DNA from: Candidatus Saccharimonadota bacterium
GTDB taxonomy: Bacteria; Patescibacteriota; Doudnabacteria; UBA920; O2-02-FULL-48-8
Assembly (NCBI GenBank): GCA_050259015.1
Contig: JBLMZV010000029.1
Span: 1-36,324 of the forward strand
Direction of reading: 5' to 3'
DNA length: 36,324 bases
Shown here: positions 12,380-34,678 of the stretch, one piece after another
Layout of the letters: each line of letters starts with the position of its first letter
Numbering within the stretch: position 1 is the stretch's first letter
Translations under genes and position numbers: made by a program
Notes under the pieces: model-generated
What the model saw: the letters and a program-made list of their open reading frames with translations, nothing else
The model's database searches: none
Told to the model about the DNA's origin: nothing

Positions 12380-12601
12380 GTTTCTTCCGATTGACCCCCG
12401 CTGCTTCTGTCGATAGATTGCGGATCCTGCCATCGGAAACATGGTAAAATCAGGATCAAACGTTTTTCAACCGTACGGAATGCTGATAGAATATACGTGA
12501 TAGAAAACGGCCTGTTTATGGAGCAGGGGATTCCGGCCAACGAATCCTTAAGAGGAGATGTGCCGCTTCTGTTCAACCTACAGGACCAATGGCTACCAAC
12601 G

Positions 12602-14002
12602 ATGAATGAAAGTAGAAAACAAACCTTAGGCTATAAAGCCGCTGTTTCCGCCTGCACCATCCTCCAAAAGGCCGGCTTCGAGGCGTATCTGGTAGGCGGC
12701 ACAGCCAGGGATATCGTCTTAGGACGGCCTTGCCCGGAAGACGCTGATGTGGCCACCAGCGCCGAGCCTGCGGAATTCCGGGAAATCTTGGAGAAAAACG
12801 GCTTTATGATGGAATCGTTCGGCGAACGCTGGGGCTCTTTAACCGGGCATTTCCATGGCGGCCGGATAGAAATAACAAGTTTCCGGACCGAAGGACGCTA
12901 CTCTGACAAAAGGCATCCTGACCGCGTCCAATTCATCAAAGACTACAGACAGGACGCCCTAAGGCGGGACTTCACGATCAATGCCTTATACCTTGACCCG
13001 CTGACGGGCAGTGTCATGGATCCGGTTTCGGGATTGAAAGATCTTCGGTCGCGGCTCATCCGTCTTATCGGCGACCCAAAAAAAAGGATCGACGAAGACC
13101 ACCTGCGGATGCTTCGCGCGGTGAGATTCACCTCTCAGCTGGATTTTAAGATGGAGAAAAATACTTTTGCAGCCATCAAGACCCGGGCTAAACTGATTGC
13201 GACCGTGACGGGGCCAAGGATAAAAGCGGAGTTGGACAAGTTGTTGCCCGGAAAGAACGTGATGTTGGGAATGAGATTGCTGGACGAAACAGGACTGCTT
13301 CGTTTCATCCTGCCGGAACTCGAGTGCCTTAAAAATATCCGACACAAATCGAAACGCTATCATCTGGAGGGCGACGTGTACAAACATTCTTTGATGGCCC
13401 TGTCGGAAGTTGCCGATAGCCGCGACCTGGATTTAAGCTATGCCGCGTTGCTTCACGATATCGGGAAGGCCACGACCGGCACAGAACACCAATCGCCGGA
13501 GGGGAAGATAGTCAGGTTTAAGGGGCACGATTCGGAGAGCGTCCGCCTTTTCGGCGTCATCGCCAAAAGGCTGGGTTTTCCCAGAAAACAGGCCAGAACA
13601 ACGGCCTGGCTTATCGCCGGCAACCGGTTCTGGCCCGACTTTGCGGACCTTCCCGACCAGCGAAAAATAAACCTCGTTCTTCACCCGTCGTTTCCGCAGC
13701 TGGCGAAGCTCTGGCAGGCGGATGCCAACGCCAACCTAAACCTCTACCCGGACGGGTCGATCGGACCATACCGTACGACTTCCCCGCGTGACGGCATGAA
13801 ACTTCGCAAGCGCGCCGAGCGAAGAAAGAATTTACTCGACAAATTTTGCGACGGAAAATATTTACTCGCGCTTACTCGACGTAAACCGGGAACCGATTTG
13901 GGAAATCTGATCCGCCAAATCCGTATCGCGGTAGTGCGCGGCGACATAACCACGGAACCGCAGCTGAAAACTTTCCTGAAGAAAAACATAAAAACCACTT
14001 GA
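12602..14002 (+). CDS. cca: CCA tRNA nucleotidyltransferase (class II) with HD domain
   Basis: AYLVGGTARD..DADVAT, RRDFTINA, EDHLRMLRAVRF, ALLHDIGK; ATG 12602 gives a family-typical N-terminus. Confidence 0.88.
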   Translation: MNESRKQTLGYKAAVSACTILQKAGFEAYLVGGTARDIVLGRPCPEDADVATSAEPAEFREILEKNGFMMESFGERWGSLTGHFHGGRIEITSFRTEGRYSDKRHPDRVQFIKDYRQDALRRDFTINALYLDPLTGSVMDPVSGLKDLRSRLIRLIGDPKKRIDEDHLRMLRAVRFTSQLDFKMEKNTFAAIKTRAKLIATVTGPRIKAELDKLLPGKNVMLGMRLLDETGLLRFILPELECLKNIRHKSKRYHLEGDVYKHSLMALSEVADSRDLDLSYAALLHDIGKATTGTEHQSPEGKIVRFKGHDSESVRLFGVIAKRLGFPRKQARTTAWLIAGNRFWPDFADLPDQRKINLVLHPSFPQLAKLWQADANANLNLYPDGSIGPYRTTSPRDGMKLRKRAERRKNLLDKFCDGKYLLALTRRKPGTDLGNLIRQIRIAVVRGDITTEPQLKTFLKKNIKTT

Positions 14003-14027
14003 CAACGAAAGCAATTTCCTTTACGAT
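13999..14027 (+). promoter_or_regulatory. sigma70-type promoter for the Lys-rich microprotein gene
   Basis: TTGACA-17 nt-TACGAT overlapping the cca stop codon. Confidence 0.75.
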
Positions 14028-14157
14028 AAAAATAGTTCAGTTATTTTGACTTTTCTCCGACGAAATATTTCGGAGCGAAAGAAAAAATAAAATAAATAAT
14101 AAGTCTCACGTAATATTGAAAAATTTTTCGTGAGGCGCAAGGAGTCTTCTAACCAAC

Positions 14158-14226
14158 ATGGCTAAGAAGAAAGCCGCGAAGAAGACCGCCAAGAAAAAGG
14201 GCGGCGCGAAGAAGAAGAAGCAATAA
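14158..14226 (+). CDS. 22-aa Lys/Ala-rich microprotein MAKKKAAKKTAKKKGGAKKKKQ (histone H1/Hc1-like composition)
   Basis: ATG..TAA between a promoter and a terminator; AAGGAG upstream; GC3-rich codons (AAG, GCC, GCG, GGC) inside an AT-rich spacer; below the ORF-track size cutoff. Confidence 0.75.
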   Translation: MAKKKAAKKTAKKKGGAKKKKQ

Positions 14227-14238
14227 CTTTTTCATCTG

Positions 14239-14270
14239 ATAAAACACCCCAATGGGGTGTTTTATTTTAT
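14239..14270 (+). terminator. Rho-independent terminator
   Basis: ATAAAACACCCC-AAT-GGGGTGTTTTAT followed by a T-rich tail. Confidence 0.85.
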
Positions 14271-14286
14271 TCCGAAAACGGTGAAC

Positions 14287-14314
14287 TTGATTTTTTTTGG
14301 AGCTGTGATATAAT
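14287..14314 (+). promoter_or_regulatory. Promoter of the tRNA cluster
   Basis: TTGATT-16 nt-TATAAT with extended TG. Confidence 0.65.
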
Positions 14315-14390
14315 GGTGACCGCAGGATTCTTAGATTTTCCGAGGTGACATAAGGGAATCCAAAGCCTGTTTTTTAGTTGATTTTAGCGA

Positions 14391-14465
14391 CGCGGGGTAG
14401 AGAAATGGCATCTCGCAAGGCTCATAACCTTGAGATTGGCGGTTCGAGTCCGCCCCCCGCAACCA
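14391..14465 (+). tRNA. Initiator tRNA-fMet(CAT)
   Basis: C1:A72 mismatch, CGCGGGG acceptor, A11-U24, anticodon loop CTCATAA, encoded CCA. Confidence 0.93.
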
Positions 14466-14517
14466 AAGCAATCAAACGGCTTAGGTAGGCCAAAAGCCGG
14501 CCTAAGCCGGTTCTTAA

Positions 14518-14593
14518 GCCAGGGTAGCTCAGTTGGCAGAGCGTGGGACTCATAAGCCCGAGGTCGTGGGTTCGATCCCCACCCCTGGTACCA
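14518..14593 (+). tRNA. tRNA with CAT anticodon, probably elongator Met (Ile2 not excluded)
   Basis: Acceptor GCCAGGG/CCCTGGT, arm TGGGA-CTCATAA-GCCCG, T-loop TTCGATC, encoded CCA. Confidence 0.88.
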
Positions 14594-14725
14594 AGAAACG
14601 GCTGTGAGTTTTCAAGTACGATTTGAAGTGCATGCGGGGTCTAACCAGCACTTCAAATTGAAAGGAGCAACACGTCGGCCGTAGCAACCGCGGTGCGGTT
14701 GCGAAGGTCCGACAAGTTGCGACGT

Positions 14726-14804
14726 GCTCGCGTGGTGTAGCCCGGTCTAACACGTCTCCCTGTCACGGAGAAGACCACGGGTTCAAATCCCGTCGCGAGC
14801 GCCA
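14726..14804 (+). tRNA. tRNA-Asp(GTC)
   Basis: Acceptor GCTCGCG/CGCGAGC, arm TCTCC-CTGTCAC-GGAGA, G73, encoded CCA. Confidence 0.95.
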
Positions 14805-29660: not shown

Positions 29661-30157
29661 ATCATAAAAAATCCGAAGACGCCGCCTCCAAGCTTGCCAT
29701 ACGACCGGCGAGAAACGGTTTAGGCGTTTTCTCTTTGCGCAACATCAGGACAGGAAAACCGATCGCCGCCATCACTGGCAAGAAAATCCATTGGCGGCGG
29801 CTTTTGAAAATGCCCAAGCGGGTCATAGACAACGCCTACCGGTTCGGACCGGAGACTTACCTCGTGTCAGACGGCTTTGCTGAATACGTCAACCATTCCT
29901 GCGCCCCGAACTCCCGCCTTGCCAAGATATCGGGAAAGCTTTGGCTTGTCGCGAGAAGGGATATCCGGGAAGGCGAAGAGGTGACATTCGACTATTCGAC
30001 CCAGATCGGCGCGGACGACATCTGGAAGATGCGGTGCAATTGCGGCGAGGCGGGCTGTCGGGGAACCATCCGGGCCCTGTCCGAAATCCCCGAAGAACAA
30101 TTCAGGCGTTACCGGGACGAAGACTCGGTCCCGGCGTATATCCTAAAGACTCTTTAA
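29657..30157 (+). CDS. SET domain protein (putative protein-lysine methyltransferase)
   Basis: GLGVF, YVNHSCAPN, EEVTFDY, post-SET CNCGEAGCRG. Confidence 0.92.
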
Positions 30158-34255: not shown

Positions 34256-34678
34256 ATGGCTAAGAAAATCAAGACCATAGTCAAGCTGCAGCTTCCGGCG
34301 GGCAAGGCCACCCCGGCGCCGCCAGTAGGCACAGCCCTCGGTCCCCACGGCATCAACATCGCCCAGTTCACCAAGGATTTCAACGAAAAGACGGCCCCGA
34401 TGGGCGACACCATCATCCCGGCTGAGATCACGATTTATGAAGACCGCTCGTTTTCATTTATTCTGAAGACCCCGCCGGCGTCCGTCCTGCTTCGCAAGGC
34501 AATAGGCGCGGATAAAGGCTCCGGCAACCCGCTCCTGAACAAGATCGGCAAGATCAGCAAAGCGCAGCTCCGGGCGATCGCCGAACAGAAGATGCCCGAC
34601 CTGAACGCCAACGACGTGGAAGCGGCCGAAAAGATCGTGGCCGGCACCGCCCGTTCCATGGGCATCGAGATCGAGTAA
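34256..34678 (+). CDS. rplK: 50S ribosomal protein L11
   Basis: [28 protein letters not shown]. Confidence 0.99.

Follow-up and report, generated by a model that had tools for sequence, protein, structure and literature searches.

The locus raises the question of whether the spacer between cca and a tRNA cluster in a Doudnabacteria genome holds a gene of its own, and what a gene of only 22 codons would do there. We analyzed the window, a stretch of 36,324 nucleotides (contig JBLMZV010000029.1), and find that the region is an independent transcription unit made up of a promoter, a leader with two stem-loops, a Shine-Dalgarno sequence, 22 codons and a terminator. The features of the unit and its surroundings are the following.

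12497..14002, plus strand: cca (CCA tRNA nucleotidyltransferase), conserved upstream neighbour, by profile match and synteny
13999..14027, plus strand: sigma-70-type promoter, TTGACA (13999..14004), 17 nt, TACGAT (14022..14027); 10/12 matches
14041..14090, plus strand: stem-loop 1 of the leader, an extended imperfect helix in the MFE fold, with a G(U/C)GAAAGA motif in the 3′ arm
14091..14102, plus strand: A-rich single-stranded linker with 3′ end AUAAG, by fold and alignment
14103..14136, plus strand: leader stem-loop 2, directly 5′ of the Shine-Dalgarno sequence, GUCUCACG...CGUGAGGC with an A/U-rich loop, by fold
14139..14144, plus strand: Shine-Dalgarno AAGGAG, inside the conserved GGCGCAAGGAG, 13 nt 5′ of the ATG
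14158..14226, plus strand: micro-gene ORF, 22 codons and TAA, MAKKKAAKKTAKKKGGAKKKKQ
14238..14273, plus strand: intrinsic terminator, a 13-bp hairpin (14238..14266) and a U-rich tail
14287..14804, plus strand: tRNA context, with its own promoter, a conserved leader element of about 50 nt (14323..14374), tRNA-Met, tRNA-Met and tRNA-Asp

The −35 hexamer of the micro-gene promoter shares bases with the stop codon that ends the preceding gene, whose best NCBIfam match is CCA tRNA nucleotidyltransferase (E 2.2e-73; 247.6 bits, below the model cut-off of 290). In six aligned relatives from the window's own family (denoted f1) the elements acTTGACA and TACGMT/TTACGCT are positioned at an equal distance. 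Assuming that transcription starts about 7 nt past the −10 hexamer, the leader is about 124 nt long, and its GC content is 28–35% against about 55–60% in the flanks. The terminator hairpin begins 11 nt past the stop codon, has a folding energy of −17.4 kcal/mol (z −5.25; 0/200 shuffles equally stable) and is followed by AUUUUAUU; a simple terminator scan did not place the 14238..14266 hairpin among its listed terminators. By eye, the six f1 relatives likewise show an inverted repeat, rich in GC and trailed by a run rich in T, that starts about 8–15 nt past the stop. The transcript as a whole (14034..14275) has a predicted folding energy of −74.4 kcal/mol (z −6.52), and the downstream tRNA genes (Met, Met, Asp; 14391..14804) are preceded by TTGATT-16-TATAAT with a TG (14287..14314). 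An earlier note on this DNA had proposed a self-contained unit with a TTGACA-17-TACGAT promoter, a leader of about 125 nt, a lysine-rich ORF of 22 residues, a strong terminator and a separate promoter for the tRNA cluster; we recovered every listed part, and the entire unit recurs in relatives.

The 22-aa product contains 12 lysines and no aspartate or glutamate, giving a formal side-chain charge of +12. G or C occupies 18 of the 22 third codon positions, in agreement with the earlier description of GC3-rich codons in an AT-rich spacer, and the lysine codons are 10 AAG and 2 AAA, compared with 61% AAG in the long ORFs of the genome. The start is also shared with rplK, as had been noted: ATGGCTAAGAA occurs twice in the whole window, at the micro-gene and at 34256, the start of rplK (Ribosomal_L11 domains), and the first 11 nucleotides are common to the two genes. 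The distance of 13 nt between the Shine-Dalgarno sequence and the ATG is rather long. The 16S rRNA 3′ terminus in two relatives reads ...GGATCACCTCCTTT; an assembled 16S is absent from the window's own genome.

Based on 146 genomes of the class (record titles: Candidatus Doudnabacteria), of which 25 belong to f1, we identified the unit in 100 genomes using covariance models and one start-pattern match. A leader model denoted R1 matches in 8/25 f1 genomes. A second model, R2, matches in 93/146 class genomes (f3, 84/95; f2, 6/10; f4, 1/9; plus G009 of f1 and one match in G000, which lies 5′ of a different gene). A polybasic ORF follows the R2 match in 30/30 of the best-scoring loci and in 20/20 weaker matches chosen by hand. 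We read the ORF itself in 60 of the 100 unit-bearing genomes, one copy being truncated by a contig end, and in all 59 genomes where it was read to the end the ATG, the stop and the polybasic frame are kept. All orthologues read are polybasic, with 13–70 aa, 50–73% Lys+Arg and no Asp or Glu. A six-frame peptide HMM found the gene in only 5/25 f1 genomes and missed known copies, so its result is left out of these counts; the pattern ATGNNNNNNAARAARARRNNNNNNAARAAR, too strict to match even the window itself, was uninformative.

Codon-level comparison of the seven f1 genomes with a homologous ORF points in the same direction. Frame 1 encodes 52–64% K+R and no Asp or Glu in 7/7, while frame 2 falls to as little as 27% K+R and frame 3 contains stops in 5/7. 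Differences are most numerous at the third codon position (85/99/149 at positions 1/2/3), and Lys and Arg are exchanged through CGN/AGR codons 38 times. As judged from this conserved frame, we are dealing with a real coding gene that relatives have kept, as opposed to a spacer frame that arose by chance, and with one that standard gene callers had left unreported, as the note had supposed.

The gene order cca, micro-gene, tRNA Met/Met/Asp is found at seven f1 loci and at 15/17 f3 loci; at one of the f1 loci (L011) the contig begins within cca. The conserved polybasic frame beside the tRNA cluster is what the note had suggested looking for among related genomes. In 3/7 f1 loci and several f3 loci the tRNA genes run in the opposite direction to the micro-gene, and the conserved neighbourhood contains no transporter gene. 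The cca product itself differs, with 460–503 aa and an HD domain in f1 and 227–254 aa in f3, where Pfam finds the head domain in the three of 17 that were checked and the start of the RNA-binding domain also in two. The note had named absence of a conserved ORF from syntenic loci as grounds for giving up the gene; the ORF is kept in many genomes and is missing from 17/25 f1 genomes. In f1 genomes that have lost it, cca and the tRNAs still adjoin. No polybasic ORF lies 3′ of cca in 12 of these 17, in which the sequence there is readable. The losses in f1 look multiple, and the micro-gene is thus dispensable in that family.

Occurrence in bacteria with ultra-small cells, for which the note had held such a peptide plausible, is supported by the distribution of the unit across the class and by similar micro-ORFs in other families of the Patescibacteria, which have unrelated leaders and, in the short flanks compared, different surroundings. 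This phylum sample gives a lower bound only, since it was drawn with a single start pattern (MAKKK...) and some of its loci were chosen by hand. SET-domain genes show no association with the micro-gene (with versus without: f3, 42/84 vs 4/11; f1, 4/8 vs 3/17), in counts where kin are not independent.

The leader is conserved as structure. In stem-loop 1, which carries the conserved G(U/C)GAAAGA motif, the inner 5 pairs are part of the RNAalifold consensus of seven genomes and the outer helix was traced by eye; the linker that follows has an A-rich counterpart ending ...AUUAAG 5′ of the hairpin in other families. Stem-loop 2 has 8 pairs, 6 of which show compensatory changes among the seven genomes (RNAalifold). 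In 52 other genomes the equivalent hairpin shows compensatory changes in 12/12 pairs; 91.6% of the alignment cells are paired, compared with 69.9% in shuffles (0/500 reach 91.6%) and no more than 56% after the pairing partners are shifted, in an alignment that was fitted to the model's structure and leans towards it. An Rfam scan passed only the three tRNAs, with no family on the leader (14034..14157) down to E = 1; the remaining matches are sub-threshold, at chance level and outside the leader. Between f1 and f3 the leader sequences have drifted apart, and a similar hairpin with a GCCAAAAUCAGC loop lies 5′ of an unrelated gene elsewhere in the genome. The hairpin and the surroundings of the Shine-Dalgarno sequence probably set mRNA stability or feedback on translation, and such control would limit how much of a polycation that may be harmful is made.

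Two contigs from soil RNA libraries cover the unit. X8 (181 nt, 11 differences from the window) covers 14069..14233 and X3, identical to the window, covers 14115..14195. X8, from a near relative, carries two compensatory pairs in stem-loop 2 (14109 C>T with 14130 G>A; 14110 G>A with 14129 C>T), and its sole listed change within the ORF is a synonymous AAA>AAG. The cca gene had no RNA-contig cover in the X8 and X3 runs. Depths here are contig-based, DNA may be present in RNA libraries, and Lys-codon words of other organisms add to the counts; we therefore make no claim of high expression, do not rank expression by depth and draw no evidence from parts of the window that lack RNA-contig cover.

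To the question of what the product is, the most likely answer from our analysis is a small positively charged peptide, a putative coat of nucleic acid. We assign a probability of about 0.5 to the reading that the gene encodes a polycation comparable to histone H1 tails or protamines, binding nucleic acid by charge. The peptide would be an unstructured oligo-lysine polycation that contacts the nucleic-acid polyanion without a fixed pocket. Its most likely target would be DNA, with nucleoid compaction or charge neutralisation as the outcome, followed by RNA or the ribosome surface. A large change in length (13–70 aa) is tolerated through Lys/Ala/Pro/Arg repeats; orthologues of 44–70 aa are built of AAKRPAKK-type repeats, and the traits of the Hc2 type (short Lys/Ala-rich repeats, no acidic residues, repeat-driven length) are seen in a set of 50 ORFs with 50–73% K+R, no Asp or Glu and 13–70 aa.

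Profile searches return the histone-like families below their curated cut-offs. The 70-aa orthologue scores 23 bits against Pfam HC2 (PF07382; E 9.7e-5, cut-off 40), 21.5 bits against NCBIfam Hc2 (NF038052; cut-off 135) and 19.8 bits against the Burkholderia-type H1-like NF038053 (cut-off 80), sub-threshold values at which the likeness may be one of composition only. For the 22-aa peptide of the window there is no Pfam match at E up to 10 and no NCBIfam match at E up to 1, and the peptides have no match among PDB sequences at E up to 10. A search of a protein collection with the 70-aa orthologue gave 1755 candidates, none at E ≤ 0.001, and the best ESM Atlas score was 0.88 (lead level 0.9), to unnamed clusters of 25–37 aa. 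The earlier comparison with histone H1 tails and protamines thus holds for composition and for the repeat-built long orthologues, and falls short in the H1-like profile matches.

Known polycations offer partial parallels. Like the micro-gene product, chlamydial Hc2 (HctB) and Hc1 are Lys/Ala-rich, lack acidic residues and contain short Lys-rich repeats. Hc2, at 165–237 aa, is far longer than the 13–70 aa observed here (22 in the window), and no developmental cycle is known in the bacteria that carry the micro-gene, whose product is a putative DNA binder. Repeats of the PAKKA/AAKRPAKK type are typical of the mycobacterial HupB tail and Pseudomonas AlgP, and they occur in the long orthologues as in the HupB C-terminus, AlgP and NF038053; those polycations are tails or large proteins with a folded domain, whereas the micro-gene product is free-standing. 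Protamines and H1 C-terminal domains are likewise charge-driven, disordered and without acidic residues, a functional analogy for which we claim no homology: the product is Lys-rich where protamines are Arg-rich and is much shorter than an H1 tail. The length of Hc2 is itself described as varying by Lys-rich repeats (PMC2848022), and AlgP is described as tied to polyphosphate granules (PMC9239181). Polyphosphate is an unlikely target here, since PPK1 and PPK2 were not found in the window's 99.7%-complete genome. The idea of a polyamine substitute is unsupported, as the genome has a gene with a Spermine_synth domain and another of the Orn/Arg/DAP-decarboxylase family.

A role in compaction would be neither unique nor essential, because HU is present in 24/25 f1 genomes and the micro-gene is missing from 17/25. 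The long-term linkage to cca and the initiator-tRNA cluster, together with a structured leader resembling those of ribosomal protein genes, is at least equally compatible with a function in translation. The main rival to the polycation reading is a ribosomal micro-protein that annotation has missed, akin to bS22/eL41 (or bL37, Thx), which would fill an rRNA pocket and use the leader for autogenous control; we consider it improbable, less so than any other alternative. The precedent is close: bS22 is reported as a protein of about 30 aa with 61% K/R that was unannotated in Borrelia and has an abundant transcript; its binding site is a conserved pocket of the 16S rRNA (h2/h27/h44/h45), and the authors expect it in more bacteria (PMC10618245). 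The micro-gene product is likewise very short, about 60% Lys+Arg and missed by annotation.

Several further observations are consistent with a ribosomal peptide. Covarying leaders are typical of r-protein operons, the first 11 nucleotides are those of rplK, and across the class the gene keeps its place with cca on one side and the initiator-tRNA genes on the other. Canonical bS22 (PF08213, mS38-like) was not found in the window's genome at E up to 10, in a search whose control matched in 4/14 genomes, so the slot could hold something unrecognised. In addition, uL30 was found in 0/25 f1 genomes; with uL30 in none and HU in nearly all of them, neither tracks the micro-gene. Our literature search, in the records that it returned, gave no report of a Patescibacteria ribosome structure.

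The sequence behaviour of the family argues against a pocket-filling ribosomal peptide. Met, Leu, Trp and His residues are described for eL41, bS22 and bL37, and the orthologues lack them; nor do they have a conserved length or conserved hydrophobic positions. Searches of seven peptides against PF08213, and against PDB chains, gave no match at E up to 10. Mimicry of rRNA by the leader was rejected, since the leaders of two relatives scored no better than shuffles against their own 16S rRNA (13/200 and 23/200 shuffles score as high), and the gene is lost from most f1 genomes. Orthologues in the same slot change from 13 to 70 aa by gain and loss of repeats, where bS22 is reported to differ at one residue across the genus Borrelia (PMC10618245).

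Beyond this main rival, we regard as quite improbable that the polycation is a cofactor of tRNA or of the CCA enzyme that aids tRNA binding or maturation. Such a role would explain the fixed place between cca and tRNA Met/Met/Asp, an order kept in f1 and f3, and the f3 enzyme has only about half the length of its f1 counterpart. The micro-gene has its own promoter and terminator, however, and f1 genomes without it keep cca beside the tRNAs. Comparable micro-ORFs elsewhere in the Patescibacteria stand in different surroundings in the short flanks compared, and gene order in small genomes can be conserved without functional meaning.

Two further explanations are less probable still. If the RNA were the functional product, as a structured small or dual-function RNA with an incidental or by-product frame, the conservation of leader sequence and structure beyond the needs of a Shine-Dalgarno sequence would be accounted for, as would the similar GCCAAAAUCAGC-loop hairpin before an unrelated gene. 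The leader lacks an Rfam match, the reading frame was retained in the 59 genomes while the f1 and f3 leaders diverged, and micro-ORFs elsewhere in the phylum have unrelated leaders, all of which makes this reading very doubtful. Oligo-Lys/Arg peptides are membrane-active, and by composition alone the product could be an exported antimicrobial or cell-penetrating peptide used by an episymbiont on its host; we hold this to be just as doubtful, as the peptide lacks a signal sequence and a leader-cleavage motif and the conserved neighbourhood has no gene for a transporter. The weakest candidate, a leader peptide whose 12 Lys codons would set formation of the terminator 11 nt downstream and read-through into the same-strand tRNA genes of this window, is largely refuted by the loci in which the tRNA cluster is inverted, and is made hardly credible by the separate tRNA promoter, by conservation of peptide composition, with Arg codons of two families, in place of a mere codon run, and by the lack of an alternative or antiterminator pairing in the MFE or centroid fold.

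Returning to the polycation reading, we tentatively propose, as less probable than the charge-binding role itself, that the micro-genes form a phylum-wide unannotated family of oligo-lysine proteins of 13–70 aa. No smaller conserved proteins of a chromatin-like or nucleic-acid-coating kind would then be known; each would be held under dosage control by a covarying leader, and in Doudnabacteria the gene would be present as a single copy fixed beside cca and the initiator-tRNA cluster. The listings and abstracts covered by our literature search contained no description of such a gene. To our knowledge almost no regulatory RNA is known in the phylum Patescibacteria, and the leader with its covarying hairpin offers a lead of its own to post-transcriptional control there. 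Should the peptide be produced and bind nucleic acid, then bacteria of very small size, with genomes below 1 Mb, would devote a dedicated, tightly built transcription unit to 13–70 residues (22 here), and proteome inventories of the Patescibacteria would be overlooking a conserved gene. It would represent a new minimal class of bacterial nucleoid or ribosome-associated proteins, and a synthetic 22-mer would be a very simple system for the charge-only organisation of DNA or RNA in tiny cells.

Every feature that the earlier note had listed for this unit is present in the sequence. A promoter scan located TTGACA-17-TACGAT at 13999..14027 (10/12 matches), with its −35 hexamer overlapping the stop codon of the upstream gene, for which the best match is the CCA tRNA nucleotidyltransferase model NF009814 (E 2.2e-73, below the model's cut-off). 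The ORF at 14158..14226 translates to MAKKKAAKKTAKKKGGAKKKKQ, and its first 11 bases are indeed those that start rplK at 34256. Folding places a 13-bp terminator hairpin at 14238..14266 (−17.4 kcal/mol, z −5.25), followed by a U-rich tail; a crude terminator scan of the window did not pick it up. The downstream tRNA-Met, tRNA-Met, tRNA-Asp cluster is served by a separate promoter at 14287..14314. The putative transcript (14034..14275) folds at −74.4 kcal/mol (z −6.52, 0/200 shuffles as stable) and carries the following leader elements, the stem-loops being taken from this fold and the Shine-Dalgarno site from the sequence:

14041..14090, + strand, leader stem-loop 1
14103..14136, + strand, leader stem-loop 2
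14139..14144, + strand, Shine-Dalgarno site AAGGAG

The spacer is AT-rich as proposed, with 28-35% GC in the leader vs 55.8% in the genome. Lysine is encoded in the ORF by 10 AAG and 2 AAA codons (genome-wide AAG share 61%), and the preferred codons GCC, GGC and ACC are also used. Among the 39 micro-ORFs (10-70 codons, ≥45% basic residues) of the window's genome, G000 (880 kb, 78 contigs, 99.7% complete), it is the sole Lys-dominated one, the remainder being mostly Arg-rich. Elsewhere in this genome, an ATG-started 49-aa ORF with 47% Lys+Arg (MTKKKRGKQKRKGRNRGRR...) lies at G000:C1:7928-8077 (+).

The ORF is a genuine micro-gene, unannotated yet conserved, and its leader covaries. When 41 relatives were searched at the DNA level, the unit turned up in several members of the window's own family (f1), seven of which have an ATG-started ORF at the equivalent place (six of 20-30 aa and one of 13 aa, including MAKKKKAAKKAKRKGGSKKKKR, MAKKRKRATKKKKSGSRRKKRV and a 30-aa form); an eighth copy is truncated by a contig end. 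Frame 1 encodes 52-64% Lys+Arg and no Asp or Glu in 7/7 genomes, whereas frame 2 drops to 27% Lys+Arg and frame 3 has stops in 5/7. Lys to Arg exchanges go through both CGN and AGR codons, and the differences among the seven genomes number 85, 99 and 149 at codon positions 1, 2 and 3, most of all at the third. A polybasic, ATG-started ORF is kept next to the tRNA cluster in relatives and is not a chance frame.

Across Candidatus Doudnabacteria we sampled 146 genomes, all of one order. R1, the covariance model of the f1 leader, matches 8/25 f1 genomes. A start-pattern scan of the class revealed ORFs of this kind in families f3 and f4, where the leader is related but has diverged, and R2, a model built on these leaders, matches 93/146 genomes (f3, 84/95; f2, 6/10; f4, 1/9; f1, G009; and one match in G000, which precedes a different gene), almost always once per genome. 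Behind the R2 matches inspected (n = 50, the best 30 loci and 20 weaker hand-picked ones), 50/50 ORFs are ATG-started and polybasic, with 13-70 aa, 50-73% Lys+Arg and no acidic residue. In all, the unit is found in 100/146 genomes (R1, 8 in f1; R2, 91 in f2, f3 and f4; one f4 genome by pattern only), with the ORF itself examined in 60 of the 100; the class scans did not find it in f5 (0/2) or f6 (0/5).

The leader matches no Rfam family. Both leader types share, in this order, A-rich sequence that ends in AU(U)AAG, a hairpin and the Shine-Dalgarno site, and the hairpin just 5′ of this site is well supported. Compensatory changes occur in 6/8 of its pairs in the seven f1 genomes and in 12/12 model pairs in 52 f2, f3 and f4 genomes, where 91.6% of cells are paired compared with 69.9% in shuffles (0/500 reach the observed value) and ≤56% with partners slid, the counts for these 52 genomes carrying the bias of an alignment fitted to the model. 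The leader's role would lie within ordinary options, mRNA stabilization or translational feedback. A weak R2 match outside the window (G000:C44:2907-2985 (−), E 0.0015) has AUAAG followed by a hairpin whose loop is GCCAAAAUCAGC, resembling f3 micro-gene leaders, but the gene downstream is a different one, and its product begins with a hydrophobic segment; such a hairpin may serve more generally as a 5′-UTR element in the class. The interval that separates the tRNA promoter from the first tRNA-Met holds a second conserved element of ~50 nt at 14323..14374 (CAGGAUUC...GGAAUCC...CCUG followed by a U-run). DNA matches restricted to this element occur in 11 relatives, one from another family, and the motif is also seen upstream of tRNA-Met in sequences after cca. 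The element may act as a signal for processing the tRNA precursor.

Part of the stretch is present in nine metatranscriptomic runs, four of which were aligned to it, all as assembled contigs. A 181-nt contig of run X8 spans 14069..14233 with 11 differences; among the eight listed are two compensatory pairs within stem-loop 2 (14109/14130 and 14110/14129) and a single change in the ORF, the synonymous 14196 A>G (AAA>AAG). Run X3 contributes a contig that matches 14115..14195 without a difference. These two runs cover the micro-gene and the tRNAs but not cca; many loose contig ends are Lys-codon ORFs of other organisms. The contigs show that the unit is present in RNA libraries and that it is under purifying selection in a close relative.

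The slot is orthologous between families. Seven f1 loci have the order cca, micro-gene, tRNA Met/Met/Asp (in one, L011, the contig begins inside cca), and 15/17 f3 loci have atpC, a short cca, the micro-gene and the same tRNAs in either orientation. The f3 cca ORFs encode 227-254 aa (17 loci) vs 460-503 aa with an HD domain in f1; by Pfam, run on three of the 17 loci, they have a PolyA_pol head, two also with the start of the RNA-binding domain:

L137:687-1397, short f3 cca gene
L143:639-1319, short f3 cca gene
L140:1760-2473, short f3 cca gene
12497..14002, cca gene of the window, for comparison

Neither an R1 match nor a MAKK[KR]-type micro-ORF was found in 17/25 f1 genomes, a count whose pattern side rests on 30 of 41 matches examined. 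In 12 of these 17 genomes the sequence beyond cca could be read and contained no polybasic ORF; in 10 of the 12 the tRNA cluster, by eye, directly follows cca. Within f1 the micro-gene has been repeatedly lost, or is at least missing.

Beyond the class, a MAKKK-type start pattern occurs in 88/401 sampled phylum genomes. The 23 outside-class loci listed include one clear polybasic micro-ORF (34 aa), and 15 of 20 further matches, chosen because the pattern continued as in known genes, are polybasic ORFs of 12-41 aa spread over 10 other families, so that the phylum-wide count is a biased lower bound. Most of the 15 combine a Shine-Dalgarno site of the GGAGG type with a terminator-like hairpin; one of them, a 13-aa ORF of G153 in Lys-rich coding-like context, is doubtful. 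A scan of all species genomes with the f1-specific leader found the unit only in Doudnabacteria. It also returned two polybasic ORFs outside Patescibacteria behind a similar SD-ATG context, one in Planctomycetota (L064:1264-1362 (+), 33 aa, MAKKKAAKKAAKKTAKRK...) and one in Xanthobacteraceae (L060:1253-1288 (+), 12 aa). At L086, L092 and L102 (in G022, G012 and G013), ~400-aa proteins start with MAKKK and carry ~40 Lys-rich residues as an N-terminal extension, followed by a conserved FDWD...LV.R core.

The class is strikingly rich in SET-domain lysine methyltransferases (64/146 genomes vs 1/14 controls), which do not track the micro-gene among class genomes. The 880-kb G000 has three such genes:

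29717..29998 of the window, + strand, SET-domain (PF00856) gene
G000:C17:14438-14728, SET-domain (PF00856) gene
G000:C40:2271-2573, SET-domain (PF00856) gene

The main rival explanation is a ribosomal micro-protein like bS22, described in Borrelia as an unannotated ribosomal protein of ~30 aa with 61% Lys/Arg that occupies a conserved 16S pocket, analogous to eL41 and mS38, and anticipated by its authors in more bacteria (PMC10618245). A translation-themed neighborhood and a structured leader are consistent with this, as are the lack of a PF08213 match in G000 and of uL30 (PF00327), not found in 25/25 f1 genomes with the control positive in 13/14; the latter also fits CPR ribosomal losses described in PMC9297842. 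However, the peptide has no profile match, the leader shows no significant similarity to the 16S rRNA of two relatives, and the gene is missing from those 17 f1 genomes. Moreover, the orthologues range over 13-70 aa through repeat gain and loss; constraint on length and sequence would be expected of a peptide that fills a pocket, but not necessarily of a charge-driven coat. The 16S rRNA gene was not found in the G000 assembly (a single 45-nt sub-threshold match); the match is 1759 nt in G022 vs 1462 nt in G003, which suggests an insertion in the former. Polyphosphate, the target described for AlgP (PMC9239181), is unlikely here, as neither PPK1 nor PPK2 was found in G000. An attenuator of the tRNA operon was rejected because the tRNA clusters are inverted in some loci (3/7 in f1) and the cluster of the window has a separate promoter, and the idea of a polyamine substitute found no support.

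Searches of NCBIfam, Pfam and PDB sequences gave no match for the 22-aa peptide or its short relatives, and no description of such a gene was found in the literature searched. In two genera the orthologues reach 44-70 aa with AAKRPAKK-type repeats; the 70-aa form scores 23 bits against Hc2 in Pfam (cut-off 40), 21.5 in NCBIfam (cut-off 135) and 19.8 against a Burkholderia-type H1-like model (cut-off 80). Hc2 itself is described as varying in length through Lys-rich repeats (PMC2848022), as do these orthologues. The H1-like character that had been claimed thus holds for composition and mode of evolution, both shared with H1-tail and Hc2-type polycations, but not for profile membership, all Hc2 and H1-like scores lying below cut-off. 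By this analogy, nucleoid compaction, as first proposed, would be the best-supported mechanism, in competition with a ribosome or RNA target. The predicted micro-gene product, which fails the family profile tests, would be a bacterial H1-like polycation pared down to a free-standing 13-70-residue peptide.
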